From Laetmonice hystrix (lineage: Eukaryota), in the NCBI GenBank assembly GCA_965235115.1, contig OZ249436.1, positions 25,670,001 to 25,734,000 of the forward strand: 64,000 bases of DNA, written 5' to 3'. The translations under genes and the position numbers were made by a program. Shown here in pieces: positions 418 through 44,268 of this stretch (positions are counted from its first letter, which is position 1; the number at the start of each line of letters is the position of its first letter). The notes beneath the pieces were generated by a model. It saw only the letters and a program-made list of their open reading frames with translations. It was not told where the DNA came from and did not search any database.

Positions 418-603
418 ATCCCATCCCCCATCAAGGGGATGGGATTTTGAAATTGTGTGGTTTCATCTTCCGTATTATTATCCCATCCCCCATCAAGGGG
501 ATGGGATTTTGAAATTGTGTGGTTTCATCTTCTGTATTATTATCCCATCCCCCATCAAGGGGATGGGATTTTGAAATTGTGTGGTTTCATCTTCCGTATT
601 ATT
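418..603 (+). repeat. Three tandem 62-bp HINE-A 5' heads (palindromic subTIR/IR)
   Basis: atcccatcccccatcaaggggatgggattttgaaattgtgtggtttcatcttccgtattatt starts at 418, 480 and 542. Confidence 0.95.
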
Positions 604-3600
604 CCCGTAGGTGTAGTAGTTAAACTCATTCTCTTTAGCATCGTATCTCGCTCATTTTTCAAGATAGCAATACAAAACTTGGTAGGCGTATTAAGGACGC
701 CAGAGAGAATTTGCAGTTTGACGCTTGACGTCATATGACGTCACGTCATGACGTTAATCGTGTTTTACGCATTGAGGCCATTTTCTAAAGCTCATATTGA
801 GAATTTCAAAAACGTCTCATGCCAAGATAATCAGGCAAGGGTATTGCCTAAATCTGACCCTTGCTTTGACCTTTGACCTTTAAGCTGAGGGAGAACTGGG
901 TCAGAGGTCACAAATCGGTTAAATTGATTCTTCTTCCCCATTTTTTGGTGAAACTTGACAATATGTGGTAGAAGCATTCTCCAATGTAAGCTCCACAAAC
1001 TGGTGCATCGGGTAAACAATTTGACGTATTTTCACTAAACCACGTGACTTTGAAGTTTTGAACTCGGGTCATTTTGAAAGGTCCTTGCTGTAACTTTTGA
1101 AAGATTTAAGACAGAGCCTTAATTGTTCATTAACTTTATAAAAGTGAATGTCTTCGTTAATAAAGTACCATAATGTTTGTATCACGAGACATGTGACGTC
1201 ATCTATGACGTCATCTTTCTGATTTATGTAACCGAACTTCTACGGGCTGTATCTTGAAAGGTATTACACATAGCCATATGAAAGTACATCTGTTGTAAAG
1301 TACATAGAGTCAGGTATACCACTGATTGTTCAATTCTTGTTCTCGAAAGGCATTATAGCCACAATCATAAGTTGTCATGTGTATTAGTCTTCACATATTA
1401 TAATGTTTGGCACTAGGATGGTTGGGGTCTCTGTATACACAGATCGCCCACTGTGCGTTCGCCGTTCGGCTCCAGCCGGGTCGGCAGAGTGTTATGTAAG
1501 TGCTACTGATAAGGCCCGCTGGTGTCGACTGCCCCAGTCCTCACAGTCAGGGTGTTGTTGGAGGAATCTGTACCCAGAACAACCCCAACTGAATGAATTA
1601 GCGGTGCTTTAGAGCTGTATGTGTAACTGTCTAATACATATTTTTTTGAATCTTATATTGGAGGAGAGCAATAAAACAAAACTCTCATGAAGGTTGTCTT
1701 CTTGAAGTTACAAAACAACTCTTGGCCAGCCAGGTTTAGTGAGCCAGCAGATTGATGTGAATAGATGTCACATTTCGGGCCGGTCGTCGGTCGTGACTAC
1801 TCCTCCTTTCCTCCAGGGTCAGGGTAGGTTTGGAGCATTAGGCCTATGTCTATTCAGAACTGACATAACTGAATTAGCTGTGATTTTGAACTGTAGGTAT
1901 AACGGTCTAATACATACATGTATATGTTTTTGAATCTGTTTTGTTTTGAATAGGAGTAGAGTTGAACTAGATATGTTGTGGAGTACTATAATGATTTTCA
2001 GAGGCCTGCAAGTATAACTGCTAAACGGGCGCTAGATAGTCCCATAGTTACTATTAAACATGAATGGAAAGATTATGTTCTTTCAATTGATACCAATACT
2101 ATTTATGTAGGGTACCGTGATAAAACATTCCCACATTCAGATACAGGTCCTGACATCTCCATCTTCAGCCTAAAAGGAAAATATTCTCAGACTAGCAACA
2201 CATGATCACTGGCTACACACTGATCATCGTAACGCGCGTTACGCTGATCCAAGATGGAGGAAGGCAGGTCTCGCTTCAACTAAAACTAGGCGTATTTCAA
2301 GCAGTTCCGCGTCTCTGATTCATCTGTAAGACGTCAGAGTTGTTTATTGTAATGGTGGCATCATGTTTGGTGAGCCTCGGCGCCTGAGATTGCCTAGAAA
2401 TCTCAAAAATCGCTCCGAAAATTTTCGCTGTGATACCCGTAACGCGGACAAGCATGTTGACAAATGATACCCGTAACGCGAATTATTGATACCCGTAACG
2501 CGACTCATTGCTGGTTAGCCTGCCATTCACTCGTAAGCTGTACTGCCTTTATTCTTCGTCTTTCAAGTAGAAAAACCATTCTCACCAGTTTTCGTTTGAA
2601 GGGAATTTAATTGTTTGTGTTATTTGAAATCTTGTGCAGGTTGTGGCAGAGTTTTTAACTTCATGTAGAACGGAGTACGTTAGCGGTAGCCACGCTCGCA
2701 AACGCGAATAGGCCTACTTCCAGCCTGTGGCGAGTTCCACTGCCAAAATAAACCACCAAATTCGCCACGCCTGCAAATTCCAGCTGTCTCCAGTTTATAG
2801 CCCAGGTCCTCCCCCCCCCCCCCATGCGCGCCTGATCCACCACTGACTGTGGTTGGAGCACGTGTGTCGGTGTGACATGTGGGTGGTCAGAGACCAGGGT
2901 GACCGACCCACCCGACCCGGTCTCTCCGTCAGGCCAGGCCAGCCGCCCGTATGCGTCTGTTCCCCCTAGTCTACTACGGACTACCCCAGGTCAGGCCGGC
3001 CCTCAGTACTGGCCCGTCTCCCCTGGGTCCAGTCCATCTGGGGTGAGTTTATGACAGATGCCAGTCAGCCTGTAGGAGTAATATAGGCCTAGTTTAATCT
3101 ATCCCGATTACCTGGCAGGCTGAGTGTACCAGGAGAGCACAGGCGACACATAGCATGGCTGAGGTCACATGGCATGAAGGTGGGGAGGCAGCTCGGCCGC
3201 TCAGTACGGGGGTCGGGGGTGTGAGGGGTGGGGGCTGTCAGGGGGGGATCGCTGTGATGAGAGGGTATTATAGCCTAGGTACCCGTCAATTTGGGCCAGG
3301 CCTCCTCTGAGGTGTAGGTGTACTGTACTGGATCCCAATATTCTTGCTGCTCAAGAGGGCCACTTGTGTAGAGTTATCCTCGAGATATAGGACAGCTTAT
3401 TCCCCCAAATATGTTCACTAAGCCCGCGTTGCAGAAGAAAATCTTAATGAAAATCGTATCTTAAATTTACGAATTCTGTCGAAAGTGTTTCAGAACAAAA
3501 AATCGTAAATAATGTTGTCGTAATATTTATGAAAGTTTTACGATATTCGTAAATATTTAAGACGACCTCAGACCTGGGCGTAACTTATACGATGCCTGTA

Positions 3601-4547
3601 ACCGCACGGACAGGCATGCGTCGCGATATCCAAATGAACGTCCAGATCCCTTTAATATTTACACTGAGGATGGTTTTTGCTGTTAATATCGAGGATTTGG
3701 CACAGGAATTCGGAAATTCAGAGTTTGCTACCAAAGAGAAACGAAATGGCAAGGGTCTATCACACCGTGAGAGGGTATGTTGTAGATGATAAGAAAATCA
3801 CAATTAATTATAATTATATCCGATTTTTTACTGAGAAAATTGTGTAGCCTAGTGCAAACAGTAATCCTCTCAGCCTTCGTTGTGGTTCTGTAAAATAGAT
3901 ATAAATAATCATTATAATAAAAATGTATAACTGATTGTTCTTTTGTAATATTTGGTAGCACTAGTGTAAGTTTTCAGACGGGTCTCACACTCATCTGAAG
4001 TTCGCTTTGCAGCAGTCGCACATACCGTCTCTGTTGATATTAAGATACCAACATTAATAGGTTGTTACATTCAATGTCAATGTCTAATAAACTTTACTGT
4101 CACAGAGACATAGAAAATATACACAGTCTATGAGCTCATAAGCTCTAAATACAACTCTGTACCAAAGGGTAGTGAAACTTAAAAGTTACTTTTCCCCAGA
4201 TTAGTTAAATCCTATCATAAGTGGACATGAAGCAATGGTCAAATTTATGGGGAAAAACACCAAAAAATATAAAACCAACTTTCCACGAAATGTTTGGGCA
4301 TGGGTTAGGGTTAAGGTCAAGGATAGGGATAGGGATAGTATAGGAATATGTTTTTGGGAGGTGTAGGGACTGAGGGTAGGGGTTAGGGATAAGGTCAGGG
4401 CCATGGATCTTTACTTTCCACCAAATTTCGTGGGGTTTAAGTTATCATGGGCGATATACCCATTGTTTAGTTGACACTTCTAGCGGCCATAATATTTAAG
4501 ATTTTAATTTTGTGTTTAACCATAGCAAGATGATAGATTAGTATCTA

Positions 4548-7190
4548 TGTTACGTGCCATCGGTCGATCTGACCCATCGGCCGATGGGTCAGACCCATCG
4601 GTGGATCGGCCAACGGGTGGATGCGCGGCGCGCCAGAGTCGCGGCCCATCGGCCGATGGGTCTGACCCATCGGTGGATGGGTGCCGATGGGTCTGACCCA
4701 TCGGTAAACCAGGAGACATGAAATGACATGAAAACCTAGAGGAGACAACCCCACACCCACCTCCTGTCCAGACCCCACACCCAGCTCCTGTCCAGACTTC
4801 ACACCCACCTCCTGTCCAGACCCCACACCCACCTCCTGTCCAGACCTCACACCCACCTCCTGTCAAGGCCCCGCACCCACCTCCTGTCCAGTCCTCACAC
4901 CCAGCTCCTGTCCAGACCCCACACCCAGCTCCTGTCCAGACCCCACACCCACCTCATGTACAGACCCCACACCCACCTCCTGTACAGACCTCACATCCAC
5001 CTCCTGTACAGACCTCACACCCACCTCCTGTCCAGACCCCACACCCACCTCCTGTCCAGACCCCACATCCACCTCCTGTCCAGACCCCACACCCACCTCC
5101 TGTCCAGACCTCACACCCACCTCCTGTCCAGACCTCACACCCAGCTCCTATCCAGACCTCACACCGACCTCCTGTCCAGACCTCACACCCACCTCCTGTC
5201 CAGACCCCACACCCACCTCCTGTCCAGACCCCACACCCACCTCCTGTCCAGACCCCATACCCACCTCCTGTCCAAACCTCACACCCAGCTCCTATCCAGA
5301 CCTCACACCGACCTCCTGTCCAGGCCCCACACCCACCTCCTGTCCAGGCCCCACACCCAGCTCCTGTCCAGACCCCACACCCACCTCCTGTCCAGACCCC
5401 ACACCCACCTCCTGTCCAGACCTCACAACCACCTCCTGTCCAGACCCCACACCCACCTCCTGTCCAGACCCCACACCCACCTCCTGTCCAGACCTCACAC
5501 CCACCTCCTGTCCAGACCCCACACCCACCTCCTGTCCAGACCCCACACCCACCTCCTGTCCAGACCCCACACCCACCTCCTGTCCAGACCCCATACCCAC
5601 CTCCTGTCCAAACCTCACACCCAGCTCCTATCCAGACCTCACACAGACCTCCTGTCCAGGCCCCACACCCACCTCCTGTCCAGGCCCCACACCCAGCTCC
5701 TGTCCAGACCCCACACCCACCTCCTGTCCAGACCCCACACCCAGCTCCTGTCCAGACTTCACACCCACCTCCTGTCCAGACCCCACACCCACCTCCTGTC
5801 CAGACCTCACACCCACCTCCTGTCAAGGCCCCGCACCCACCTCCTGTCCAGTCCTCACACCCAGCTCCTGTCCAGACCCCACACCCAGCTCCTGTCCAGA
5901 CCCCACACCCACCTCATGTACAGACCCCACACCCACCTCCTGTACAGACCTCACATCCACCTCCTGTACAGACCTCACACCCACCTCCTGTCCAGACCCC
6001 ACACCCACCTCCTGTCCAGACCCCACATCCACCTCCTGTCCAGACCCCACACCCACCTCCTGTCCAGACCTCACACCCACCTCCTGTCCAGACCTCACAC
6101 CCAGCTCCTATCCAGACCTCACACCGACCTCCTGTCCAGACCTCACACCCACCTCCTGTCCAGACCCCACACCCACCTCCTGTCCAGACCCCACACCCAC
6201 CTCCTGTCCAGACCCCATACCCACCTCCTGTCCAAACCTCACACCCAGCTCCTATCCAGACCTCACACCGACCTCCTGTCCAGGCCCCACACCCACCTCC
6301 TGTCCAGGCCCCACACCCAGCTCCTGTCCAGACCCCACACCCACCTCCTGTCCAGACCCCACACCCACCTCCTGTCCAGACCTCACAACCACCTCCTGTC
6401 CAGACCCCACACCCACCTCCTGTCCAGACCCCACACCCACCTCCTGTCCAGACCTCACACCCACCTCCTGTCCAGACCCCACACCCACCTCCTGTCCAGA
6501 CCTCACACCGACCTCCTGTCCAGGCCCCACACCCACCTCCTGTCCAGACCCCACACCCACCTCCTGTCCAGGCCTCACACCCAGCTCCTGTCCAGACCCC
6601 ACACCCACCTCCTGCCCAGGCCTCACACCGACCTCCTGTCCAGACCCCACACCCACCTCCTGTCCAGACCTCACACCGACCTCCTGTCCAGACCTCACAC
6701 CCACCTCCTGTCCAGACCCCACACCCACCTCCTGTCCAGACCCCACACCCACCTCCTGTCCAGACCCCACACCCACCTCCTGTCCGGACCCCATACCCAC
6801 CTCCTGTCCAGACCTCACACCGACCTCCTGTCCAGGCCTCACACCCAGCTCCTGTCCAGACCCCACACCCAGCTCCTGTCCAGGCCTCACACCGAGCTCC
6901 TGTCCAGACCCCACACCCAGCTCCTGTCCAGATCGGTCACCATTGTTGTCATGTTTGATTACCCCCGGATTTACCCGCTGTTATCACTACTCAAATTTTT
7001 TACACACATTTCAAGTTCTGTTAAAGTCTTAAAAGTTAGGGTGCCTACGGCTAAACGTTTTTTTCTTCATGATAACTACAGTATAGTCCGTTTTATGTAT
7101 TGCATCCATGTGTTCCGTTTACCAACCACCCATCCATCGATGGGTCTGACCCATCGGCCGATGGGTCAGATCGACCGATGGCGCGTAACA
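4548..7190. mobile_element. TGT...ACA TIR element with 4-bp TSD (Ginger-like non-autonomous) carrying a minisatellite
   Basis: The ~59-bp TIR tgttacgtgccatcggtcgatctgacccatcggccgatggg... is inverted at 7132-7190. TCTA lies at 4544-4547 and 7191-7194. Confidence 0.8.
4748..6932. repeat. 24-bp minisatellite (~91 copies, CAGACCCCACACCCACCTCCTGTC) with higher-order duplications
   Basis: Direct reading. Variant-unit patterns recur at +960 bp (identical ORFs 4863-5138 and 5823-6098) and at +336 bp. Confidence 0.97.
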
Positions 7191-7457
7191 TCTAGATATG
7201 ATATATATTTGAATAAAAGATCTATAGAGAACTGCTATACCTAGGCCTATATACATTGCCGTCACATCTATAGTAGGCACTACCAGAATTTGCAACTTCA
7301 TAAATGAGAAACACCTCACAAATCCTTCATATTTAGCGAATAGCAGAGTCTAGATACAGTGACCAGATATCTCCTCCCAGGCTTCCCTTTTCACTTCTTC
7401 TGCAGTCCCGACATGCTTGGATGCAGATCGGTCGTCTTCCTTTGCTTCTGATGATGG

Positions 7458-8628
7458 CATGGGCGTCGAATACTTTGAAAATGTGGTGGGGGGACCAGGG
7501 GCGGATCCAGGATTTTTTGCAGGGGGGGGGGGGTCAGAAGGTTCCCGCGCCGGGGGGGGGGGGCTCCGACTGAAAATGTTTGGGAATATAAAAGGCCATA
7601 GATGCTATTTCCCGGCTTCTCTGCATCAAACCGAAGAGTTTTGGGTACCGACCTTTTGGTCAAAATTAATGTATTAATCAGTGGGGGATCCAGAGGAGCT
7701 CAGCCCCTTTAGATTTTCCTTTTTTGTATGAAGATGCCTTAGTACAGCTAACATGAAATCATGCCGAGCGTAGCGAGGATAATTTCTTTTTGTAGGTGGG
7801 CCCCACCCCAATATCAAAATCCTGGACACCCCACTGATTAATGCATGTTTATTAGAAATAGAGGGGGGAAATAACCGAGAGAAGGGGGGGTCACGACTCC
7901 CCCCCCCCCTCCGATTCCCTATCTAAAGCATGCAACATGCATGCGCAGATGGATCAGGGGGGCGCCTGCCACAAGCATTTGACAATTAATTAAAATTATG
8001 TGCACTACATAGGCGGCGAAAGATATTCACAGGTGGGGGGCAAAGACCAAATCATAGGTCCCAAGTTCCAAGATTCGAAATGCTGGTCATGCGAGCGGGG
8101 TCTGGGGGCCCTTCCCCCGAAAAAAATTAAAAATTAAAGTGCCAAATACGCGTTTTCCTGGCATCGGGGATCAAACTCCAAGGTCTTAGAGGTAGCTAAA
8201 AATAACATTTTTTTAATTAGCAAAAATCGCACATCTATCAGATATGGCTATAGATCTAGACAACTCGATGTGGTTAAGCAAAGAAAGTGCCTGACGCCTG
8301 ACATCTCCTGCCACCTTGAGCTAGGGGGGCAAAAATATGCTTTCCCCCCTCGCCCCCTCCCCCACAAACTCACTCATTTTTAGCCCTGGTTTGGCATTTT
8401 AATTAACGAAAGAGACGGACAACGTCATGCCAACATATCGGATCCAGTTCAACGCGCTTATAGTTATACTGCTTAGGGAATCAGACCTGCTGTCTGCTGA
8501 ACCCACCAAGGGTTGGCTTGTGGGGGTGGGGGGTGGGGGCATGTCAATTGATATGATGTCCCCCGCCCTGTATAAAAAGTGGGAGGGACATGTCCCCCCC
8601 CCCCCCCCCCCACCTTTCGACGCCCATG
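7458..8628. mobile_element. hAT-like MITE with further nested G/C-run MITE fragments
   Basis: TIR catgggcgtcgaa (7458-7470) pairs with ttcgacgcccatg (8616-8628). The 8-bp flanks GATGATGG and GAAAATGG match at 6/8. Confidence 0.5.
7679..7836. mobile_element. 158-bp MITE (CAGTGG termini) with 6-bp ATTAAT flanking duplication
   Basis: cagtgggggatccag pairs with ctggacaccccactg. ATTAAT lies at 7673-7678 and 7837-7842. Confidence 0.6.
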
Positions 8629-10576
8629 GAAAATGGTGGCCGCATCATCAAAACATAAACATCCGTTCCGCAAAAACAACAGATAAACCGGAGCACATGC
8701 CAAGACCTGTGCGTATTCAGGTGTCACGGCACAAGTTAACATTTCCTTAATCAATATACGAGAATTCTCGTAAAATATTTACGATTTTATTCGTAAATTT
8801 AAGATGTGCAATTTCAGATATACGAAAGCTGTTCTGAAACGCAATTTACGAATGTTCGCAAATTTTTTCGTATCTTAAAATTTACGAGGATTCTCTTATC
8901 GCAATTTAGGACAAAACTTCTGCAACGCGGGCTATAGGCCTACACACAGCTGGCAAATGAAAGTACATGTACTTTATATTATACAGAGAAATTAAGACTG
9001 TATAATACATGTATAATGAACTCTGGTTCTAAACCTAAATAAAAAACATTAAAACAACTGTGGCTAAAACTTTTTCCCTGTGGCTAGTTCTTTTCCTCAG
9101 TTGTTAGCCACTGTGGCTAATACCCAAAATTCACTAGCGTACTCCCTGTCGGAGGAGTCAGGGTGCTCTACCCCGGGGGACTGGGGAAGGACAAAGCATC
9201 TCGATCTCTCATGGTGCCTGCCAGGCAAGTCTTAGATTCGTGACCCCGCCCTGGGGTCCACACACACTCTGTATGGTAACACCTATAGTATAGTATAGTA
9301 TCACACACGCTGTTAATCCGGGCCCTATTATATACGTGTACCTCATGGTTTTACCTTCATACTGAAGTAGGTAATGCTCATTACAAAGTTGAGATTCATT
9401 ATCAGATCATGAGCCGATGTTGAAAGTCGTCTACTCGTCTACGTAAAAACCTTTAGGCCTAGGCTCAGTGAAAGGTTTAGGTGCCGCGTTACGCCTATCC
9501 TGTCACCAAATTAAACTTGCGTTACGGGGATCAGCGCTGCGCGTTGCGGGTATCATCGCCAAATCTTCTGCGTCCATTTTCTCTTAATCTACGCCCGTCT
9601 AGGACCCCAAACTGAGACAGACGGCAGGCACACATTGTTATCATGATATTCAGATGTTGTTTTATGTTGTTGATGCACCGTAGCCCTTGTAACTTGAACA
9701 AAAACACGCGAAGCGAGCATCGGGATCGTCCATCTTGGATCAGCGTAACACGCGTTACGATGATCAGTGTGTAGCCAGTGATGATGGCATTATCGTTAAA
9801 AGCTAGCTCGTGTACCATATTGACTGGGGGTGGGCCATATTGACCAACTACCTGGGCCATATCAACCAGGCCATTATCGGTCATGGGCCATATCGACCGG
9901 AGACCATAATGATCATATTATGGAGGCATTGGAATCCCTGGAAAAATTATCTTCCGATGACTATGATAATGACAGCATTGGAATCTCTTCGACAGGGTTC
10001 CCAGCCACTCTAAAAATCAGGGAAAACCTTTAAATCCAGTCAAGGAAAACTCGGGATTTGGGGAAAAACATATAAGATCAGGGAAAACTCAGGGAATTTG
10101 ACAGTGACCCAGATGGCAAAGGTATTCGTCAGTTAATTCCATTTGGCGGGCGCATCTTTAGTGTGTCCGAAGTTGTATCCATTGACTTATTTGTATCGTG
10201 GCTTTTTAATGTTGATAAGAGTGTGAAGAATACACCTGTCCGTACCGTTATAATCGGTTATGCTACCTATATTAAACACAAAATATATCTCATGGAATTT
10301 TGGAAATTTCTCAGGGAATTCTCAGGAAAAAAAAATTCAGGGAATTTGATGTTTACAAAAAGCGGGGAACCCTGGTTTCAATTGACGCCAAGATTCATGA
10401 TGTACAGCAGCGTGCTGTCTGACATCATAATGACATTATTGGCATCTATTAAGGAAAGGATTATAACTTGTGATAGGTGCAAGATGCAGCCATGTTTCAT
10501 GTTGAAATCGAGTAGAACGGGAACGCCGCAGGGGGATGGGATTCATAATGTGGCCATCGCCACATCCTATCTAGTT

Positions 10577-12068
10577 ATCCCATCGCCCATCAAGGGGATG
10601 GGATTTTGAAATTGTGTGGTTTCATCTTCCGTATTATTCCCGTAGGTTGTAGTAGTTAGACTCATTCCCTTATAGCATCATATCTCGCTCATTTTTCAAG
10701 ATATCAATACGAAACTTGGTAGGCATATTAAGGACACCAGAGAGAAATGCCAGTTTGAAGCATGACGTCATATGACGTCATGTCATGACGTTATGACGTA
10801 GATTTTCTTTTGTACATTTAGGCCCATTTTCTCAGCCCATATCGGGAATTTCAAAAATACCTCGTGCCACTATAATCAGGCAAGGGTGTTGCCTAAATAT
10901 GACCCTTAATTTGACCTTTGGCCTTTGACCTTAGGGAGAACTGGGTCAAACGTCACAAATCGGTTAAATCGTAAATGCTTCCCCATTTTGGGGTAAGATT
11001 TGATAATATAGGGTAAAAACATTCTCCAATGAAAGCTTCAAAAAATAGAGCAGCGGATAAGCAATTTGATCTATTTTCACAGAACCACGTGACCTTGAAG
11101 TTTTGAATGTGGGTCTTTTCGGAGAATAATCGCTGTAACGTTTGAAAGACTCCAGACAGAGGCATAATTGTTCATGAACCTGATACACTTTGGTGGCCTC
11201 TTTAATTACGTATCATAATTTTTGTGTCACGTGACTTCTTACGTCATCTACAACGTCATTTGTGTAATTTGCATTAGCGACGGAATGGTAAGCTCACACC
11301 CTTTAATATGTATAGGGTAGGGACTTTAAAGTGTCTGCTATTTTATATTATAAATTTCAATGAGCAAAATTTATAATTAACAAGACAGCAGTTCAATATA
11401 TACCAAAATAGTGAGGACAGGCGGCGAATTTCACGATTAATGGATGACCTACTTAGTGACATGTTCCCTCTCTTATGTGGGTCAGTCCTGCGTGGACACG
11501 GTCGCTATGGTAGACTAAAAGTAGAGCATGTGTATATATCCGACATTATCACATCCTTCGTCATGAAATTTTAGGAGTAGCTTGCTAACATGTTAAGCTT
11601 CGGGCCTCTAAAATATAAAGGCAATACTCATTATAGTTTGGGCAGGCGACGGTTGGAAAGAGATGGGGGATGTTGGCAGCAGACACCCTGCAATGAACGC
11701 CCGCCCGCCTGCCTGCCTGCCTCCCCTGCTCACACCAACGAGTATAGAATTCTATACTCCTTGCTCACACTGACCACAATTATGGCCGTATCGCCGTTGC
11801 GAGTTTTGTTACCTGGTATCAAACCTTTTGAGGAGACTTCTAATAATGAAAGGAAGTAGGCCTAATCATTCGTTACATGTAGGGGGTCTAAGTTTTTGAA
11901 ATGCTTGCACATGTTGTCTGACCGCACATGTCTCTCCCAACCCTATTAATAGATGGAGCGCAGACAGGCAGGCAGTGGCGGTCTGCACATAAATTAAGGG
12001 ATCAATTAGTGACCTGCAATTATCTTCTGCAACCCCCACCCTTGTTGCTGTTGGTTAACCCCCCCCCC

Positions 12069-12127
<59 letters not shown>

Positions 12128-14784: not shown

Positions 14785-14873
14785 ATCCCATCCCCCATCA
14801 AGGGGATGGGATTTTGAAATTGTGTGGTTTCATCTTCCGTATTATTCCCGTAGGTGTAGTAGTTAAACTCATT

Positions 14874-20860: not shown

Positions 20861-20906
<46 letters not shown>

Positions 20907-27743: not shown

Positions 27744-27790
<47 letters not shown>

Positions 27791-28258: not shown

Positions 28259-28309
<51 letters not shown>

Positions 28310-29820: not shown

Positions 29821-29990
29821 GCGGTGACCTAGTGGGCATGGATGTCGACACCTTATGCTATGCGAATGGGTGCAGTAATCTTAGGGCCTGGGTTCGATTC
29901 CTGTAGAGGACTATACAACTTTTCTCTTTAGGGACATTGTCAAAGTAATTGGGTTACCCCTGATGCCCGTGCATTTCAAAAGAAAAATAC
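29821..29990 (+). repeat. Inverted ~170-bp copy of 29324-29492 with Pol III-type A/B boxes
   Basis: A-box-like GGTGACCTAGTGG at 29823-29835 and B-box GGTTCGATTCC at 29891-29901. It is a near-perfect reverse complement of 29324-29492. Confidence 0.8.
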
Positions 29991-30009
29991 ATACCTTATC
30001 GTCATCGGT

Positions 30010-31270: not shown

Positions 31271-31319
31271 AAATGCTGTCACGTGACCCCATCTGGCTTA
31301 ATGACCCTTTTTAGGTAAT

Positions 31320-32000: not shown

Positions 32001-32080
32001 GAATGGGATACCTGTGCCCTGGGCACCTCGCAACTAGTTAATCTTTTCTTTCGCATAGAAAATCTGCCATAGCTATATCA

Positions 32081-32135
32081 TTACGTCTCCCCCCAGCTGG
32101 GGGAGACGTTTTGTTTTGCACGCTGTTTCTGACCG

Positions 32136-32178
<43 letters not shown>

Positions 32179-33754
32179 TGTTTCTTTTATTTCCTTCTTT
32201 TTGGAATAACTCGGCCACTGTTAGAGAGGGAGTTATCAAATTTGAAATGCCCTGACAGAACCTTCTGAAAAATCTTTGTTTCTAATTATAGTGCCATTTG
32301 ACCTTTGACCTCTTCCGTGGCACGAATGTGCCAACTTGTGCTGTGATCACGATAACGCGAGAAAAATAGCCTGAATCGATCCAAAATTGGTATGTCGGCC
32401 TTCTTTTATCCGGGGCTTGGACAAGTTCGATAACCAGTTTGGTTGACCTAGAACTTTCAAGATGGCGGCTGATCTAAAAATAATGGCACGTGCCATTTTT
32501 TTGCCAAAGCCATAACTCGGAAAATACTGGCTGGAATAACATCAAATTTGGTCAGCAGGGTCATCTATGTGCCAAATTTAGATTTCCCGGAGGACACGTT
32601 CGTGTGACCCCAGATGACCTCTATGTGACCTTCAACATTTTCGAAGTGGTTGGGCGCTTACTTGACATCAGCCCAAAAACTACCGGGGCTAGAAAGTCCT
32701 AATTTGGGGAAAAGACAACTGTGGATATTTTCTCGGGATTTTGCTATTTTTAGCACTTCATGACCTTTGACCTCAGTACCGTGCCAACCTTAGAGAAGCC
32801 TTTCATATCTTCCGAACCCATTACCGTATCTTTATGAAACTTGGTGGAGAAGAATCTCCAGGTCTTTGCCTACATCGCTACACTAAGTGTTATTCTCTAC
32901 AGTTAATAGTTTCCGACTTATGTGGCCGTCTTTCCGACACACAGCCACACAGCGTAAAACGCTCGCGTGTCGCGTAAACAAGGGTCCACCACCACTAGGT
33001 CAGGGGTCGTTGCCCGGCAACAAGGTGCCTGACCTCGCCACGCCTGCATCTATTTACAGGAGGTCAGATCCTAAGCTGGTTCTCGGCTCACTCGCTCTGG
33101 GGTCGACGCGAGTAGGAGCCGGTAACACCTACTGAGAGCTTGGCTGTCATTGGTCACACTCCCGTCTTTGATAGCTCGCTTATTATTGGCTTATCTAAAA
33201 ATACATTAAGGATGTGCCTCTGTGATGGCCGCGCTGCCCATATTTTATCTTCTTCTTATGCCGGCCAACGACACCACCTTCTTCCTTTCCTGGCACATTC
33301 TGACGCGTCAGGCAGTATCAAGCAGTCGGTATAGCTTAGTCGAAGACGCACTACCATTATCACAACCCTTTCATTCACCCAAAACTGCTTTGGACTACCG
33401 CATATTACCCCGGCCCAAGGGTGTAGCTAGGGGGGTTTCCGGGTTGTCTGGAACCCCTCCCCTCCCCCAAAAAGATAATTAATAGATAATTAAGTAACTA
33501 AATAGATCTATATGAATGACTAATATTATGGTTGCCCCCCCCCCCCCGCATCTCAGTTGGACCCCCCCCCCGCATCTCAGTTCTGCCTACACCTCTGGCC
33601 GCGCTACTAATATTATTATATCGGGGTTTTTTTGCATAGAAAATCTGCCATAGCTCGCAACACACTTCTTTCAGACTAGTTAGGTCAAACAATATATAAT
33701 GTGATTGATTTAAAAAAGGGGAGACGTCCTGTTCGGACTGAACAATTTCTAGTT
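32081..33754 (+). mobile_element. HINE family B inner copy nested near the 3' end of the outer copy
   Basis: A second identical 5' palindrome starts at 32083. The first CTAGTT end is at 33749-33754, after which the outer 3' end resumes (gcaacacac...ggggagacgt...CTAGTT, 33859-33864). Confidence 0.85.
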
Positions 33755-35006
33755 GCTTTTGCAACACACTACTTTCATACTAATTAGTCCTCTCTCAAAA
33801 ATTATATGATGTCATTACTTTAAAAAAGGGGAGACGTCCTGTTCGGACTGAACAATTTCTAGTTAGTACTTGGTATATGGGGATCGGGGGTGACAGACGC
33901 CCTTCTCCTTAATCGGACTGAAGTCAGCGGGCTGGGGAGGGGGACTGGCGGTGGAAGGGACGTCCTGGCGGGAGGGAAGGTCGCCACCGCTACTGCTGCA
34001 AACCCTTCATCTAGGTATAGGTATGATTCCCTGACCAACAGTTCTCAGAACAGACGAACCCGATTTTGGCCCAAAACCCACAAGATTTACTTTCTACTCA
34101 CATACACACACCTGGACACTGCCCACTGCACTGCGTTCCGTTTCATTAAATATCCCCATAAAAGACTGGCGGATGATCCAGGATTTTGCGTTGGGATGGG
34201 GGGGGGGTGGTGGTGGTGAAGGTAATTTTAGCGACATGATAACTGTGGTATATTCTTTCTTTCATACCGCATGTTAAGTAGGGTTGTATAAATAAAGGAT
34301 ATACACCGTTCAAAAGCACGGTTCCCTGGTTTATCGTAGATTTAACCATTTGGCCACCATATCCCTGCTACTGGCAAAGAGGCGCCTTCGAAAACTATAT
34401 TAAAAAGCATCATTCTGCAGAAGTTCATGGCGCTGCTCGGCAGGCGAAGGGCTGAGGACACGTGTTCCCACGCTTACCTGCCGCCCCCTGGTGGCCGCAT
34501 ATACTTTGTGAACATGGGTGCCGAAAAAGTGGTGTTTATTTTTCAAACTTTCAGCCTATATGAACTGTTGTACATTCTGTAAATAGCTGACTACACCATC
34601 TGAAAGGAAATTCTCTTTAGGGCCTATCTTGAAAATCATCCCGTTTTACATGCAATTTAATACCTTTCTTTTGCTCCAAAATGGGCCAAAGCATTCAAAT
34701 CTCAATATTTGCTGAGGCATGTCCTATCCCTTAGCGCTCGCCCATTGGTTCTACAAGGCCGGGATCGCAGCACCTACAGATGGAGCCACCAAATTGCAGA
34801 CTGTATAAAGCACTGCTCTGTTTGGCTCAGAGCCTAATCACAAAAATAAAAGATAAAATGCATAATACTCGCATAGTAACGTAAAATCACCTTATAAAAG
34901 TATAAGTATGTTCATATTTTAGTATAATCCTGCTGTGTCGCTTAATGATTTACTTTGTCCTGTAAGTGTAACTGCTAAACGGTGCCAGAAAGGCCCATAG
35001 TCACTC

Positions 35007-35300
35007 CAATCTAATTAAAATTAGATCTTAGTTATTTCGCATGCGCTACATACTAGGATCTAACGGCATCCCGTATGGGGTCACCTCAGGCTGACCTTTG
35101 ACCCAGATTCAAGTGTGCCGTTGAAAATGCCTACGAGCGCACACCGAAGATTTCGTAGGCGGCTCGCTGATTGGCTGAATCCCGAGGTCAACCTGAGGTG
35201 ACCCCTAATGGGATGTCCTTAGATCTAGGTATGGAGCGCAGCCAGCACCGACACAGCCGAGAGAGACGCGGAATACCAAGATCTAATTTTAATTAGATTG
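35007..35300. mobile_element. 294-bp MITE with 10-bp TSD (Mutator-like)
   Basis: TIR caatctaattaaaattagatctt pairs with aagatctaattttaattagattg. ATAGTCACTC lies at 34997-35006 and 35301-35310, with a single copy at the empty site ~22457. Confidence 0.85.
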
Positions 35301-35314
35301 ATAGTCACTCTTAA

Positions 35315-35841
35315 AGGGAGTCGTAAAATTCATTTTTTTCGATTTATGGCAGTCTTAGAAACATATGATTCGCATACCTTGGACTCCCAGTAACATCATG
35401 TGAGACTGTTATGGCCCAGCGACCAGTATTTAGTAAGGAAAATATGCCAAATCTCTCGCAAATACGTAGCTCAGAATTAGCGAGCGGCCCACACGATATT
35501 TGAGTTGGCCGCGGTCGGGCGATGATGACGCGTGATCACGTGACTTCCGGGTGTGGAAGGGAATCTCCCTCTAGTCTAATGTTGACCTAAATACCGCATG
35601 TACACCCGGAAGTCACGTGATCACGCGTCATCATCGCCCGACCGCGGCCAACTCAAATATCCTGTGGGCCACTCGCTAATTCTGAGCTACGTATTTGCGA
35701 GAGATTTGGCATATTTTCCTTACTAAATACTGGTCGCTGGGCCATAACAGTCTCACATGATGTTACTGGGAGTCCAAGGTATGCGAATCATATGTTTCTA
35801 AGACTGCCATAAATCGAAAAAAATGAATTTTACGACTCCCT
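35315..35841. mobile_element. 527-bp foldback MITE with TTAA TSD and AG...CT termini (Kolobok-like)
   Basis: Near-perfect 240-bp arms at 35315-35554 and 35602-35841. TTAA lies at 35311-35314 and 35842-35845, with a single TTAA at the empty site ~22467. Confidence 0.9.
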
Positions 35842-36163
35842 TTAAACACGATGGAAAGATATGCTCTTTTAATATTTATTATATAGCATATCGTATGACG
35901 TCATATTGACGTCATTGACATATTCTCAAAATTTCCACAGGCCTGCACATGCTAAACGGTGCTGAACCCTGTATCTTTGCCCCCCCCCCCCCTGGAAAAT
36001 TATCTTCCGATGCCTATGATAATGATGGCATTGGAATTTCTTGTGAAAGGTACAAGATGGAACAATGTTTCATGTTGAAAACGAATAGAATACAATGGGT
36101 CGGACGGGAACGCCCCAGGGGGATGGGATTCATAATGTGGCTATCGCCACATCCTATCTAGTT

Positions 36164-38306
36164 ATTCCCGTAGTAGTTAGACTATTCACTAAATATATCC
36201 ATATCTCGCTCATTTTTCATGATATCAAAGCAAAACTTGGTAGGCATATTGAGGACGCCAAAGAGTATTGCCAGTTTGAAGCATGACGTCATATGACGTC
36301 ACGTCATGACGTCATGACGTAAATTGTGTTTTGTGCATTGAGGCCCATTTTCTAAGCTCATATTGGGAATTTCAAAAACGCCTCATAGCAATATAATCAG
36401 GCATGGGTGTTGCCTAAATCTGACACTTGATTTGACCTTTGACCTTTAAGCTTAGAGAGAACTGGGTCAGAGGTCACAAATCGGTTAAATCGATTCTTCT
36501 TCCCCATTTTTTGGTGAAATTTGACAATATCTAGTAGAATCATTCTCCACTGAAAGCTCCAAAAACTGGTGCATCGGGTAAGCAATTTGACCTATTTTCA
36601 CTGAACCACGTGACCTTGAAATTTTGAACTTCGGTCATTTTGAAAGGTCCTTGCTGTAACTTTTGAAAGATTTAAGACAGAGCCTTAATTGTTCATTAAC
36701 TTTATAAAGGTTTATGTCCTCTTTAATTACGTACCATAATTTTTGTATCACGAGACTTGTGATGTCATCTATGACGTCATCTTTCTGATTTATGTAACCG
36801 AACTTCTACGGGCTGTATCTTGAAAGGTATTGAACATAGCCATATGCAAGTACGTCTGTTATAAAGTGCATAGAGTCAGGTATACCACTGATTGTTTAAT
36901 TCTTTTTCTCGAAAGGCAATATAGCCAAAATCATAAGTTTTCATGGGTATAGTCTTCACAAATTATTATGTTTGGCACTAGGATTGTTGCAGTCTCTGTA
37001 TACACAGACCGCCCGCAGTGTGAGCTGGTGCCGCCCGGCGCTGGCCGGGGCTGAGAGTTATGTAATTGCTGCTGATAAGGCCGGCTGGTGTCGACTACCC
37101 GGTCGTCCCAGTCAGGGTGGGGTTGGAGGAATCTGCATGTCCAGAACAGCCCCAACTGAATTAGCTGTGCTTTAGAGCTGTATGTGTAACTGTCTAATAC
37201 ATATTTTTTTAATCTTATATTGGAGGAAAGCAATAAAACAAAACTCTCATGAAGGCTGTCTTCTTAAAGTTACAAAACAACTCTTGGCCAGCTGTCCTTG
37301 GTTTAGTGAGCCAGCAGATTGATGTGGATAGATTTCACAGTTTGGGCCGGTGGGTCATGAGTCACTATACTCCCCCTTTCCTCCCAATCAGGGCAGGGTT
37401 GGAGGATTAGGCCTATGTGTATTCAGAACAGACATAACTGAATTAACTGTGGTTCTGAACTGTAGGTATAACTGTCTAATACATAGATGTTTTTGAATCT
37501 TACATAGGAGGAGAGTTGCACTAGATATGTTGTGGAGTACTATAACGATTTTCAGAGGCCTGTAAGTAAAACTGCTAAACGGTGCGAGATACTCTCATAG
37601 TTACTATTAAACATGAATGGAAAGATTATGCTCTTTCAATCGATACCAATATTATTTATGCAGCGTGCCGTCAAAAGCTTTCTCACACTCAGGTACAGGT
37701 GCTGACATCTCCACCTTCAGCCTCAAAGGGAAATATTCCCAGACTAGCAACTCATGATGGCATTACCGTGAAAAGCTAGCTAGCGAACCATATTGACCGG
37801 GGGTGGGCCATATTGACCAACTACCTGGGCCATATCAACCAGGCCATATCGGTCATGGGCCATATCGACCGGAGACCATAATGATCATATTATGACGGTA
37901 TTGGAATCCCTGAAAAAATGACTTATTTATATCGTGGCTTTGTAATGTTGATAGAGTGTGAAGAATGCACCTCTCCGGACCGTTATAATCGGTTATGCTA
38001 CCTATAAAACCCAAATATATATCACATGGAATTTTGGAAATTTCTCAGGGAATTCTCAGGAAAAACTCAGGGAATTGGATGTTCACAAAAAGCAGGGAAC
38101 CCTGCTTTCATTTGACGCCAAGATTCATGATGTACAGCAGCGTACTGTCTGACATCATAATGACATTATTGGCATCTATTAAGGCAAGGATTATAACTTG
38201 TGATAGGTGCAAGACGGAGCCATGTTTCATGTTGAAAATTAGTAGAACGGGAACGCCCCAGGGGGATGGGATTCATAATGTGGCCATCACCACATCCTAT
38301 CTAGTT
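36164..38306 (+). mobile_element. HINE-A unit U6 (headless, U1-type body, uninterrupted, ~2.1 kb)
   Basis: Starts attcccgtag after CTAGTT. It is a diverged paralog of 604-2206 joined to 9781-10576. CTAG lies at 38301-38304. Confidence 0.8.
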
Positions 38307-38887
38307 ATCCCATCCCCCCGATAGGGGGATGGGATCTTAAAGTTGTATGGTTTCGTCTTCCGTATTATTATTCCCGTCAGTAGTAGTAGTAGTAGTAGTT
38401 GTAGTAGTTGCATTTGTGCATGTAGCTCAGTCATTGATAAAGATATCCAAATGAAACTTGGCAGGGACATTCACCATGGTAGGGAGAATCGATCCATATA
38501 ACCATTACGTCATATGACGTCACATCATGACGTCATGACGTAAATTGTATTTTAGACTTATAGGCATTTCTTGAAGCCATATTCTATACTTTCCCAAGAC
38601 TTTTTATAGCTGAATAATCGGACATATACTCTTTTTACTACTCTCCATTATTTTGACCTTTGACCTTTGAGGTCATGGAAAAGTAGGTCATATGTCCGAA
38701 AGTGGTCAAATCCCTACTCCTCTGCCATTTTTTGAGAAAATATGACAATTTTTGGTGGACAGGCCTTTTGTAGTGAGCTTTGTTTGAAACCGCATGGAAT
38801 ATGACATTTGACCTATTTTCGCTGTACCACGTGACTTTGAAGTTTGACACTTTTTACATTTTTTTCGAAAACTGCTTCAGTCATCTA

Positions 38888-39636
38888 TGGCCGTATGCAA
38901 GAACGTATTTAACCTCGAGGTTAACCCAGTCTGTGGGTTAACTCGTTAACCCGGTATGCAAGAACGTAAAAATTGTCAGGGTTAACTCGTTCTCTGGGTT
39001 AAAGTTAACCCTGCTACCTTAGTAGGGTTAACCCACAGAAACATGGAGGCCGTGAGTGTCGATTGCCTCTGAATACTTGCCTATCACCAAGCCTACGAGT
39101 CATCTACACGTTTCAAGTTCCGTTTCTAACTTGCTGAGATACCGTTCCTACAGCCTGACCCATTTTGCCATCTCTTTGCTGACTAAACAAGAGGCCACAA
39201 TGACGTGAATCGAGACATGTCTGTGACATAGCAGTCCAACGTCACAGTCAGCTTGGGCGATTTATTGTGACGTCACAGTAAAGATCACGTCAGAATTGAC
39301 ATCTCTGTACGTTACCGCAAGATGCCGCTTGACTGTGACTGGCGAGTTTATCCTAAACAGCCAAATGCAGCACCATTTTTATTGCAAGATGGTTGCATTT
39401 GAACTATTTTTTTGTTACTGATTTAAATATGTCAGGTAAAGCAAGTTTCCTTCTATTTTAAAGGTCAAAACCACCATTAGGCTGTATGGAAAATACAGAT
39501 TACGATGGAGTGATACGGAACGAAATTGACTGACTTAACCCGGTGATTTTGAGTTAACCCAGAGACAAGGTTAAACCAAAGTGTGGGTTAAGCCGTTCTC
39601 CGGGTTAACTCTCGCCACTGTTCTTGCATACGGCCA
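38888..39636. mobile_element. 749-bp PIF/Harbinger-like MITE, 3-bp TSD
   Basis: TIR tggccgtatgcaagaac pairs with gttcttgcatacggcca. CTA lies at 38885-38887 and 39637-39639. There are many TTAACCC/GGGTTAA subterminal motifs. The empty site is at ~24221. Confidence 0.85.
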
Positions 39637-40249
39637 CTAGAAATCGTGTATTTGGTCATTAGACATGTGCTGGTATTGACGATTGATCACTTTGCATAAT
39701 TCTTTTCATAAATTTACCAATAATTTTTAATTTATGATAAAATATCTGTAATCTAACTTTGACAGGCTCTACCTGAAACGTGTTTAAGATAGCCACATGC
39801 AAATACAAAAATTACAAAGTCTATAGATTCAGGTATACCACTGGTTCTTTAGTTCTTTTTTTGGAAAGGTAATCTGGCCAGAAATGCAAGTTTTAATGGA
39901 TAACAAAATATTTTTACACTGACGGTTGGCATCTCTCAATATACAGAACGCCCGCTGTGTGGGTTACGTAAGTGCTGGTGATAAGGGCCGGCCGCCCGGC
40001 CGGTCGGTTGACTACTCCCTCCTCCCTCCCAGTCAGGCTGGGGTTGGAGGAATGTGATTGTGTATTCAAAATACACAAAGTGACAATGGACTGGGACGGG
40101 GAAAACCGTGAATGAAGGGATATATAGGGGCACCAATAGAGAGTCTAGGGAAGAAGGAGGAGAGAAAGGATACTATAGTTGACGATGAGGAACAAATAGA
40201 CACTGCCCGCGTGGCCCATATATATTAGATGGGTCAAAGAAGACGTGTG

Positions 40250-41340
40250 TTGAGTTTGAGTTTGAGTTTGAGTTTGGTTATTTCAGGAGCAGGCTTGTTT
40301 GAGATACATTAAGGGATGAGGAAGTTCTAAAATGAACTTATGTACATCCTTATTAAATTACAACATAATATATAACTTAAATGGTGACACAAGCAGAGAT
40401 ACATTAATAAGTAATTAAATGACACATCTATAGGGTATAAATGACAGGGTATACAAGCGGCAATACATTGCTAAATAGATAGATACAAAACTATCACAAT
40501 GGTGTATTATAAGTGATGTGCATTGCTAGAGAAAGATAGAATATATATGTAAAAAATTATAAATAAAACAGGGGTGATGATGATGAGGAAAGGAGATGAG
40601 AATGAATTAACTGGCTTCAAGTTTAACAAACAAGTATTGTTTTGTTTTCCGTTTGAAACAATGGATCGAAATATTAAGGTCAATGTTACCCTCTTTCATA
40701 AAAATATTTTCGGACCTTGGAAAAAGAGAGATCGTTCGAGAATTTGTCCTCCTATTGCCGGTAAAATGTAGTGATCAGACTGCCGAGTGTTTCTGGTATT
40801 TAATTGATATCTTTTATTAATTAAAAAAATTACATAAGACGCCATGTAGGAGCTAAATTATGATGTATTTTAAACAAATAACCGGCAACTGAAAGGTGGT
40901 AAATTTGTTCAAGTGGAAGTATTTTAGCCTCCTTATATAGTGGTAATGAATTAGTTCTTTGTGGTTTATTAAAGACTAGTCTGATGGCTTTCTTTTGAAG
41001 AACAAATAATTTGGAAAGAAGGGTTTTATTTGCCCTACCCCAGACCGTAATACCCGTATGAAAGTATGGGTAAAGAAAAGAGTAATATAACCTTATAAGA
41101 ATATATTGGTCAAGGGTTGATCGAGACTTATGAATTATTCCAATTGATTTTGAGACTTTGTTGCAGATATATTTTATATGGGATTGCCATGTCAAGTTAG
41201 ATTCGATTATATACCCTAAGAATTCAGTTTGCGTTACCTCTTCGATTGGTTGGCCATTTATTTTTAGTGCTAAGCTCTAGTGAGATAATTTACTGAGATG
41301 ACATGGAAAGATAATATAATTCGTTTTTTTCTATATTAAG
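40250..41340 (-). mobile_element. 5'-truncated non-LTR retrotransposon (CR1/L2/Crack-group LINE): ORF2 C-terminus, 3' UTR and (AACTCA)n tail
   Basis: The peptide FLGYIIESNLTWQSHIKYICNKVSKSIGII..LYYSFLYPY..GITVWG..LQKKAIR (ORF 40830-41195 plus its upstream frame) is the typical post-RT region. The (TTGAGT)n tail lies at 40250-40276. Confidence 0.85.
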
Positions 41341-43396
41341 TTATAAGTTATAATCGGTATAGTCTTCACAATAAAATGTTTATCACTCTGGACGGTCGGC
41401 TGTCTGCGTATACAGACCACCGGCTGTGGACAGCCACCCGAGGGCGGTAGCGTTACGTAACTGCTGCTGATAAGGTCCGGGCCGGCCCAGATCTCCTACT
41501 GTGACGCGGCCGCCAGTCAGGATGTGGTTGGAGGAATAGCCTATGTGTATTCCAAACTGACATTACTGAATTAGCTGTGCCTCTAAACTGTAGGTTCTGT
41601 CTAATACATGTTTTTGGATACTTCCCCTTGCCTCATAGTCAGGGTGGGGGTTGGAGGAATATGTGTATTCAGAACTGACATAATTGAATTAACTGTGGTT
41701 TTGAACTGGGGGTGTAGGCTAACTGTCTAATATATATATATGTTTTTGAATCTTACATGGGAGGAGAGCTGAATAACAGAATACTTTGATTGTTGGCTGT
41801 GGAATTAAGGTGACATGCTAAACTTTTGGTCAGTTGCACTTCGTTTCAGCCTGGGTCAAAAGCCTGGTGTGGATGACATTCACACTCATTGGACTTGTGT
41901 GACACTGACATGGCAGGGCGCTTTTTGATAGGCCCCCTAGGCCTATCCGTGTCAATTGTTCATGATGCCGATAATTTTGCATAAATTTACCAATATGTTT
42001 TTATTTATGATGAAATTTGTAATTCAGGATTCAGGTATACCACTGATTGTTTAGTTCTTTTCTTGGATAGGTAATGTGGCCAGAATTGTAAGTTTTAATG
42101 GGTATAGTCTCCACAATAATATTTTTACCCTCTGACGGTTAGCATCTCTGAATACACAAACCGCAAGTGAGGCCGGCCTTTGAACTGTAGGGGTAACTGT
42201 CTAATGCATTTGTTTTTTAATCTTACATAGGAGAGCTGGAAAAAAAACCAATACAATTGATTGTTGGCTGTGGAATTCAAGTGACACGACAAACTTTTGG
42301 TCAGCTGCACTTGGTTTCAGCCTGAGCCAACAGTCTAGTGTGGATGACATTCGTATTTCTACCATAAGTGAGACTCCTCCCTGGGCCTCAAATATTATTA
42401 GGGAGCGTGCTATGAGGCTGATAACATATCATTTGGTATTTTATCCATTTAACCTGTTGTGGGGTATGCACCACTGAACAAGCGCATATAACACATCATG
42501 ACATGGCAGCCGGGCGGTATACTAGCTGTTAATCATAGAAGCCGGGCAGAGCATGGCCAGCTAATTAGCCATGGGCAACGCGCCAATGATGGCCCGCCCG
42601 CCAGTGACCATTGTCCATCCTTATAGACTCGGAGAAAACCGTGAAGGAAGGGATTATATAGGGGCACCAATACTCGTTGGTCTAGGGAAGAAGGAGGAGA
42701 GAAAGGATAGTATGATTGACGATGAGGAAGATAAAGGCATTGACCGTGTGGTGCATATATTAGATAGGTCGAAGAAGACATGTGTTCTTCAGGAATAATT
42801 GTTTCAAAACTCAAGAAACGACTCTACTAACTTATTCTCCCAACTACCAAAAACAAAATAAGAACTGAATATAGCTGTAGGAAAGAAAAAATAGCTATAG
42901 GAAAGAAAAAAATAATTGCCGGACGGCGTGGGCACATCCCTCTATATATCCCCACTCTTTCTTTTTGAAGAATTGACAAAAATTATTGTTAGGCTAACTC
43001 AAAACACAGCCACGGGCCCAGGATTTTAGCAGAGGGGTCTCGGAAATCGAAATGAAAATGAAAATTGATGTTGATAGATCACTAATATTATTGAAACAGC
43101 TGTAACTCGGAAAGGGGGCCAGGTAGAGCTATGGTTACTATTGAAGCCATAATAGGAATGTTCTTTCAAAAGATACCAAAATCTATGATGTAGGGTGACG
43201 TGTTACATGACAATGACGTCATTGATAGATGACCAATAATAATTATTGAGGTCATATAGGAAGTAATAATATATGCTCTTTCGATCTACGGGCCTATCGA
43301 TGACGTGGAGGTAGTCTAACATGATAATGGATCTATGATTTTCATTGCCAGGGGATGGGATACAAGATGTTGGCCCAAGCCACATCGGCGCTAGTT

Positions 43397-44268
43397 ATTC
43401 CCGTAGGGTGTAGTAGTAGTAGTTAACTTTTTCTCTTTTTAGCATCATATCTCGCTCATTTTTCAAGATATCAATACGACACTTGGTAGGCATATTAAGG
43501 ACACCAGAGAGAAATGCTAGTTTGAAGCGTGACGTCATATGACGTTATGACGTAAATTATCTTTTGTACATTGAGGCCCATTTTCTCAGCTCATATCGGG
43601 AATTTCAAAAATACCTCCTACCACTATAATCAGGCAAGAGTGTTGCCTAAATAGGACCCTTAATTTGACCTTTGACCTAAGGGAGAACTGGGTCAAACGT
43701 CACAAATCGGTTAAATCGTAACTCCTTTCCCATTTTGGGGCAAAGTTTGACAATTTAGGGTAAAAACATTCTCCAATGAAAGCTTCACAAAATAGAGCAG
43801 AGGATAAGCAATTTGACCCATTTTCACTGAACCACGTGACCTTGAAGTTTTGAATGTGGGCCATTTCGGAGAGTAATCGCTGTAACGTTTGAAAGACTTA
43901 AGACAGAGGCATACTTGTTCATGAATCTGATACATCTTGGTGGCCTCTTTAATTAGGTATCATAATTTTCGTGTCACGTGACTTCGTACGTCAGCTATAA
44001 CGTCATTTGTGTAATTTGCACTAGGGACGGAACGGTAAGCTCACACCCTTTAATATTTATAGGGTAGGGACTTCAAAGTGTCTGCTCTTTTATATTATAA
44101 ATTTCAATAAGCACAATTTATAATTAACAAGACAGCAGTTCAGTATATACCAAAATAGTGAGGACAGGCGATGAATTTCACGATTAATGGATGACCTACT
44201 TAGTGACATGTTCCCTCTCTTATGTGGGTCAGTCCTGCGTGGACACGGTCGCTATGGTAGACTAAAAG
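43397..44268 (+). mobile_element. HINE-A unit U8 (headless, U2-type, 3'-truncated at the inversion junction)
   Basis: Matches ~10634-11521, then breaks at tagactaaaag. Confidence 0.75.

Follow-up and report, generated by a model that had tools for sequence, protein, structure and literature searches.

A pile of non-autonomous Helentrons in Laetmonice hystrix, probably built by self-insertion at a TAT tract in the element's own head

The anatomy of non-autonomous Helentrons (HINE/DINE-1 elements, here HINEs) has been described by Thomas et al. 2014 (PMC4067079) and for oyster Cg_HINE (PMC7492417); by these accounts, the 3′ subterminal repeat lies about 38-60 bp from the end. In Fusarium, the Helitron2 element FoHeli shows stacks of 2-5 short 5′ ends of 31-85 bp (Chellapan et al. 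2016, PMC5148889; PMC13342296), which the same two papers explain by self-insertion and later joint mobilisation starting at the outermost 5′ end. HelenXT233 of Xenopus tropicalis, reported with HELIANO (PMC11417382), is an HLE2 element with two non-identical left ends in direct repeat. The transposase of Helraiser, a Helitron1, forms and precisely cleaves right-left junctions in vitro, and circles are the donors (PMC5876387). In the accessible portions of this literature, little is known of Helentron target choice beyond "TT in T-rich DNA", and the side-by-side occurrence of unrelated rolling-circle elements is unexplained. We analysed a 64,000-nucleotide stretch of the Laetmonice hystrix genome (assembly GCA_965235115.1, contig OZ249436.1, positions 25,670,001 to 25,734,000, forward strand; hereafter the window). 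It is animal-type repetitive DNA with a GC content of ~43%, and its plus strand holds, from 417 to 44268, an array of related non-coding elements broken by foreign insertions. This array is probably a pile of HINEs that inserted into one another at a TAT tract in the head, its order scrambled by composite copying and recombination.

Judged by sequence anatomy, the array units are non-autonomous Helentrons of the form TATCCC...CTAGT with HINE/DINE-1 organisation. The first-pass annotation of this DNA had recognised the repeated units and left their class unnamed. The subterminal repeat and its inverted copy form a left-end hairpin, with 11-12-bp stems starting at nucleotide 2 (all three heads folded, z -3.4 to -4.7). 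In its second arm, this hairpin repeats the sequence of the 3′ subterminal repeat in the same orientation. (TAT)n and then (GTA)n tracts come after the left end of each copy, and some copies carry central tandem repeats (146 bp, 19 units, in copy E; 158 bp, 2.9 units, and 126 bp, 2.1 units, in the body termed c). At the 3′ end, the reverse repeat GGGGATGGGAT is followed by a short stem-loop and then CTAGT. In the eight plus-strand right ends inside the array, the distance from the start of GGGGATGGGAT to the cut is 44-45 nt; the right end at 416 has a variant of the repeat. Stem-loops of 5-8 bp were found in all five right ends folded (four of the family itself, one related), weak by energy alone (z -0.4 to -2.1). 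CTAG and then T follow the stem-loop in all aligned right ends, a CTRR-type end as in HLE1. A canonical Helitron (HLE1) was rejected, the left end being TATCCC rather than 5′ TC and the target T^T rather than A^T. A coding function of the array elements was likewise rejected: a single stop-to-stop frame of at least 150 amino acids overlaps family DNA proper (10076-10609), with no Pfam hit, and the window's long frames with Pfam hits belong to retroelements. The central repeats at 15496-18278, 23286-23747 and 30002-30516 (146, 158 and 145 bp), which lie in different copies, are 65-70% alike, so different HINE lineages carry related satellite-like units.

Nested insertion is real and was directly shown once, by an event that the earlier annotation had missed. 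E (14873-18675) splits copy A2 at ACTCAT^TCTC, and the flanks rejoin exactly to the empty site present in copy A1, without duplication. This pair defines the unit as TATCCC...CTAGT, inserted at T^T without duplication, a result that comes from the one empty-site pair.

Ten plus-strand left ends (TATCCCATCCCC...), all in one orientation, lie at 417, 479, 541, 10576, 14784, 14873, 26133, 26195, 26259 and 38306. Four of them (417, 479, 26133 and 26195) are 62-bp heads that directly precede another head; the array thus has its heads stacked in threes at two places, and also contains an 89-bp stub. The earlier annotation had counted these four surplus heads correctly but placed them one base too late. 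It had also claimed bodies without heads, and the three on the plus strand were recovered: CTAGTTATTCCCGTAG occurs at 22783, 36158 and 43391, and the bodies begin ATTCCCGTAG at 22789, 36164 and 43397. A fourth, claimed on the minus strand at 63318, exists but reads CTAGTTATTCCCGTCAG (...GTCAG) rather than ...GTAG; it begins ATTCCCGTCAG, and ATTCCCGTAG has no minus-strand match in the window. Directly before each of the four headless bodies stands a complete right end (subterminal repeat, stem-loop, CTAGT) rather than a stray CTAGTT, and none of the four lies in unique DNA within the window. We propose that non-autonomous Helentrons, mobilised in trans by a RepHel transposase, have piled up to form the array. 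New copies would favour the TAT tract that lies 62 nt within an older copy, leaving a surplus head and a headless body, and would also enter the junctions so made, giving head-to-tail right|left joins.

The neighbours of the left ends point to a hotspot. Five of the ten are preceded by a right end and four by a head tract, and E lies 27 nt beyond a head tract. Four of the five left ends not joined to a right end therefore sit in a head TAT tract, for which the chance is P ~5e-9 if 40 such sites, a generous number, are allowed among 7,250 T^T positions; this value and the one given below for TATTAT sites assume independent events, and co-copying would break that independence. At 26258, moreover, a head of the x type adjoins a head of the a type, with 9 differences between them.

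Public contigs from three runs of one sample, which may be the window's own source, were aligned to 10400-11500; their summed depths are not copy numbers, and the joints and loose ends cited here are those listed, with 333 loose ends beyond the listing. At 10638, the first base past the head, 15 contigs of run X3 part from the reference, and one contig of run X2 joins this base to the left end of a different family, the third related one, whose right end is GGTGAATGGGAT (31998-32038). The depth of that joint is 148, compared with 18-41 for most X2 joints, which hints at several copies but concerns one joint only. Deletions starting at 10638 make up 2 of the 10 listed deletion or loop joints.

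Together, E, the mixed-lineage heads and the contig with a foreign left end support the earlier suggestion that new copies enter the TAT tract between head and body. They also bear on an account without targeting, in which heads were gained by slippage or unequal exchange and lost by deletion between TTAT microhomologies. Slippage cannot explain all of the stacked heads, because neither the join to the foreign left end nor the x|a join is a duplication. It would also take a chance coincidence of breakpoints in four bodies of four subtypes; GTAT|TATCCC, the reciprocal product, has 0 occurrences; and for E nesting is demonstrated. What speaks for such an account is the near-identity of adjacent heads within each stack (0-1 differences), the presence of other deletions and fusions in the array, and the fact that CTAGT|TATTCCCG is exactly what remains when a right|left join with a two-unit TAT tract loses 59 bp. 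We consider it improbable.

The position of the cut is nearly constant. Of the ten right ends, six have it 35 nt past the end of GGATGGG (the others 32, 33, 36 and 36 nt past it); for the surplus heads the values are 35, 35, 35 and 38 nt. Every one of the four headless bodies opens with TATTCCC, which has one base more than the TATCCC of the left end, and rejoining head and body restores at least three TAT units, as in the intact copies E and C. The half-junctions expected from a two-unit host without duplication, GTAT|TATCCC and CTAGT|TCCCG, number 0 each in the array. A three-unit head reads "repeat, 35 nt, T^TATTCCC" and so resembles the true junction, "repeat, 35 nt, T^TATCCC". The tract may thus be chosen for its likeness to the right|left junction of a circle, a step in which our confidence falls just short of even. 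We infer from this analysis that a right|left junction could itself be an insertion target. Insertion would then leave head|left and right|body, both of target form, and the sites would multiply, one becoming two. More tentatively, the Helentrons of this genome might home to their own end junction, each copy offering a decoy junction in its hairpin arm plus three TAT units; it is just as tentative that, in a target, the transposase responds to the signal "subterminal repeat + 35 nt + T^TAT(T)CCC" as it would in the circle junction. If true, homing would be a self-amplifying, sequence-encoded safe harbour common to 60%-identical subfamilies and a second family, and it would account for mixed arrays in a single orientation.

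Self-insertion may instead have used a plain TAT microsatellite, reached through T-rich preference and local hopping, with the 35-nt match a coincidence. HINEs do favour T-rich TT sites (PMC4067079, PMC7492417), and FoHeli1/2 are described as inserting after TNAT (PMC5148889), a pattern that ACTCAT^T, the site of E, follows. Before variant heads, the consensus of the loose ends is ...TATTAT or a T run, and only one TATTATTAT lies outside heads in the array, so that three units may be needed. However, 52 of the 69 TATTAT sites lie outside heads and none of them was used (P = 0.004 for 4/4 falling in the 17 within heads). The register is also fixed on the 3′ side (4/4 TATTCCC) and nearly fixed on the 5′ side (3/4), and the five right|left joins at CTAGT^T are left unexplained. 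We regard this microsatellite target as a possibility of some weight, if a doubtful one.

The equality of head spacing and true right-end spacing could have another meaning: the head might be a cryptic terminator or origin, so that the 62-bp head moves alone, or so that a circle opens to give the permuted order body-right end-head, as at 22788-26258. There, x heads of the c body's own lineage stand directly after that body's right end, and two deletion joints start at the base after a head. The 3′ half of the head, though, has no strong stem-loop like that of the right end; the window shows neither a solitary head in unique DNA nor one with flank behind it; bodies e and b' have no heads of their lineage behind them; and a tandem copy of a composite yields the same order without a new reaction. 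This alternative is unlikely. Descent of the head's 3′ half from the right end is also unsupported: beyond the repeat, the two share 13 of 33 bases (shuffle p = 0.08), which in addition tells against the proposed likeness of head and junction.

The earlier annotation had suggested that heads and bodies may pair like brackets, last in, first out. The bodies fall into two lineages, a/b/e (81-99% identity within) and c (84-97% within), with 59-62% identity between them. Five intact a/b/e copies carry a-type heads, and the sole intact c copy carries a y head, which differs from the x heads at 4 positions and from the a-type at 9; the link of x and y heads to the c lineage rests on this one copy. 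Head and body lineages match in all six intact copies. Strict pairing (479 with 22788, 26195 with 36163, 26133 with 43396) crosses body lineages in 3/3 cases and thus fails. A body displaced by "~20 kb", as had been suggested, is probably wrong for the same reason. The annotation's own caveat, a poor match of head and body subtypes, was therefore borne out more strongly than it had been put. Strict pairing could be saved only by later exchange or conversion of heads across lineages. Conversion of such short and very abundant heads is possible, and the pairing closes with only head 417 open in an array cut off at 44268; but three independent swaps would be needed where 6/6 intact copies are matched, and an A/B fusion is visible between 479 and 22788. 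We hold this explanation to be very improbable.

A parse that respects lineage gives two properly nested pairs, 479-36163 (35.7 kb) and 417-43396 (43.0 kb). It leaves the c body at 22788 without an upstream head and the x heads at 26133 and 26195 without a downstream body. Several breaks of continuity are visible: A2 changes from A-type to B-type at ~20505 (its 3′ part is termed Bx), the c body changes to C-type at ~23750, and at 44268/44274 b' is fused to a minus-strand copy that is itself truncated. Bx and B2 form a sister pair, with 99.6% identity over 1,150 bp compared with 97.5% for B1 and B2 over the same stretch. B1 and B2 differ at 5 of 1,128 positions at the 5′ end and at 18 of 1,162 further 3′ (p = 0.01), which hints that the B copies may be mosaic; three copies cannot place the crossover.

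By parsimony within this one window, the most economical history would have a composite "x x B c-body" enter the site behind 479 as a tandem copy of 1.x units. The series Bx-c-x-x-B2 would be this tandem copy of "x x B c", its first part lost in the A/B fusion at 20505. One x head would pair with the c body of the neighbouring unit, and the other would have left its body behind at the donor locus, in line with the FoHeli model. Bracket order would thus have been scrambled by composite copying (from a first left end to a later right end), by deletions and by exchanges.

Several observations weigh against a self-inserting pile with a preferred tract. The failure of strict nesting in 3/3 pairs forces extra events into the model, and among these only the A/B and c/C fusions are seen directly. 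The plus strand has four surplus heads and three headless bodies, and one x head is left without a partner body. Heads 417, 479 and 541 differ by at most one base, as slippage would also yield. The preference for three TAT units is not significant (intact tracts, four with two units and two with three; split tracts, 0 and 4; Fisher p = 0.076) and is confounded with age; the three-unit variant makes up ~1-3% of the summed contig depth there, an unreliable figure since contigs end nearby. A 3-nt duplication on a two-unit host fits the same junctions at the head tract. The insertion site of E has no upstream GGATGGG. Among the joints listed in the public contigs, there is neither a same-family head-to-head joint nor a head-skipping one. 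Finally, no autonomous partner turned up in the window: of its 14 long frames, the seven scanned contain no Rep or helicase domain, and the other seven are minisatellite frames or antisense of pol. Private differences in the copies and adjoining heads of two lineages make an assembly artefact, in our view, unlikely. The pile of self-inserting HINEs is still the reading that we think likely.

On this reading, a fixed-register hotspot is a concrete, testable substrate, and would provide a path by which dispersed elements become long repeat blocks of one orientation. Nested stacks would date subfamilies relative to each other; bracket order, by contrast, is an unsafe clock once composites are copied and copies recombine. 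In titles and the starts of abstracts (supplements, repeat databases and most subscription journals lay outside this search), we found no fixed-register Helentron hotspot, retained headless bodies or junction mimicry. The pattern of the head end had no match in metagenome contigs. The hairpin pattern had none in viral contigs and two in metagenome contigs, both covering the ~30-bp hairpin only, which were rejected as chance. These two are unrelated contigs with a similar ATCCCATCCCC hairpin (L001, 248-273 and 412-437; L002, 3001-3028); the one in L002 sits after a stop codon and is terminator-like.

The features of the array and its borders are collected in Table 1.

Table 1. Coordinates of HINE copies, heads, bodies and related ends in the window
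Feature	Coordinates	Strand	Remarks
Right end of upstream related HINE	372-416	+	Degenerate subterminal repeat, 7-bp stem-loop, CTAGT
Surplus head 1, a-type	417-478	+	Ends GTATTAT, 35 nt past GGATGGG
Surplus head 2, a-type	479-540	+	One private C>T; 35-nt spacing
Complete copy A1, ~2.5 kb	541-10575	+	Split by foreign 7.5-kb insertion at ~2206-9772
Complete copy B1, ~3.4 kb	10576-14783	+	Plus foreign insertion at ~12226-12990
Copy A2, host of E	14784-22787	+	A-type 5′ part fused at ~20505 to B-type 3′ part (Bx)
Complete copy E	14873-18675	+	146-bp repeats, 19 units; in A2 at ACTCAT^TCTC, no duplication; tract of three TAT units intact
Headless body, c lineage	22788-26132	+	c/C chimera at ~23750; C-type right end
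Surplus head 3, x-type	26133-26194	+	4 differences from C head, 9 from a-type; 35-nt spacing
Surplus head 4, x-type	26195-26258	+	One extra TAT; 38-nt spacing
Complete copy B2, ~3.4 kb	26259-36162	+	Foreign insertions at 28202-33863 and ~35006-35841
Right end of third related family (GGTGAATGGGAT)	31998-32038	+	No matching left end in window
Headless body e, a/b/e lineage	36163-38305	+	88% to A1 and to E; complete to right end
Complete copy C	38306-43395	+	y-type head; intact tract of three TAT units
Headless body b'	43396-44268	+	91% to B; truncated on meeting minus-strand copy
Headless C-type body	44274-63319	-	97% to C; without last ~200 bp
Interruptions of minus-strand C-type body			LTR retrotransposon 53036-63304 and other insertions
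Right end of another related HINE	63320-63361	-	Precedes minus-strand headless body; 32-nt spacing

At 44268-44274, two oppositely oriented arrays meet, each in a truncated copy, which points to a break by deletion or inversion. Other elements have inserted into these arrays. A second Helentron-like family occupies 28202-33863 (plus strand) in B2, with the hairpin ACGTCTCCCCC...GGGGGAGACG and the end CTAGT. Its site in B2 reads AGTTAGTTAG, which resembles its own end, and one TAGT unit of the empty site is missing. This element has two right ends (33749 and 33859) and an internal 850-bp duplication, and contains a 170-bp inverted repeat of 99% identity at 29324-29990. A small inverted-repeat insertion with 14-bp ends starting CAGGGGCG lies in A2 at 20035-20419. 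The 7.5-kb insertion at 2206-9772 has 61-bp inverted ends starting CACTG, and within it a 24-bp minisatellite of 91 units (4748-6932) is open in all three plus-strand frames. On the minus strand, 53036-63304 is a Gypsy-type LTR retrotransposon with 501-bp LTRs that are 100% identical; it encodes gag (61487-62602), a 1,635-amino-acid pol frame and a third frame of 338 amino acids with no Pfam hit (54754-55770), and its insertion point is the headless copy's GTA microsatellite, where 4 bp are duplicated. A DIRS-like retroelement at 46221-50459 (minus strand) lies inside the minus-strand HINE with all frames open (gag-like, reverse transcriptase with a Dam-like domain, and tyrosine recombinase).

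In the accessible text of the papers cited, the elements here are like HINE/DINE-1 in the 5′ subterminal repeat with a nearby inverted copy, the microsatellite and the central tandem repeats, and also in the 3′ subterminal repeat with stem-loop, the TT target without duplication and the clustering; the element here, by contrast, ends CTAGT. Those accounts describe clusters and tandem arrays by missed termination, with no mention, in the text available, of a fixed self-insertion site or headless bodies. The short stacked 5′ ends before one element (two three-head stacks and one stub) are like the FoHeli composites; there, as far as described, duplicated lengths vary among strains, whereas here one register holds across 60%-identical subfamilies, and headless bodies remain in the array, whereas the FoHeli papers, in the same portions, do not analyse bodies left behind. 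HelenXT233 is likewise an animal HLE2 in which different tandem left ends each mark a subfamily; it is described as one autonomous element, the text available mentioning no nested array or hotspot. The mimicry step proposed here would borrow the junction chemistry of Helraiser, which, by the published account, is a canonical Helitron (TC...CTAG, A^T target) whose junctions were shown as donor sites rather than targets. Stacked 5′ ends made by self-insertion have thus already been published for Fusarium; what is new here is the nearly fixed register of the cut and its resemblance to the right-left circle junction.

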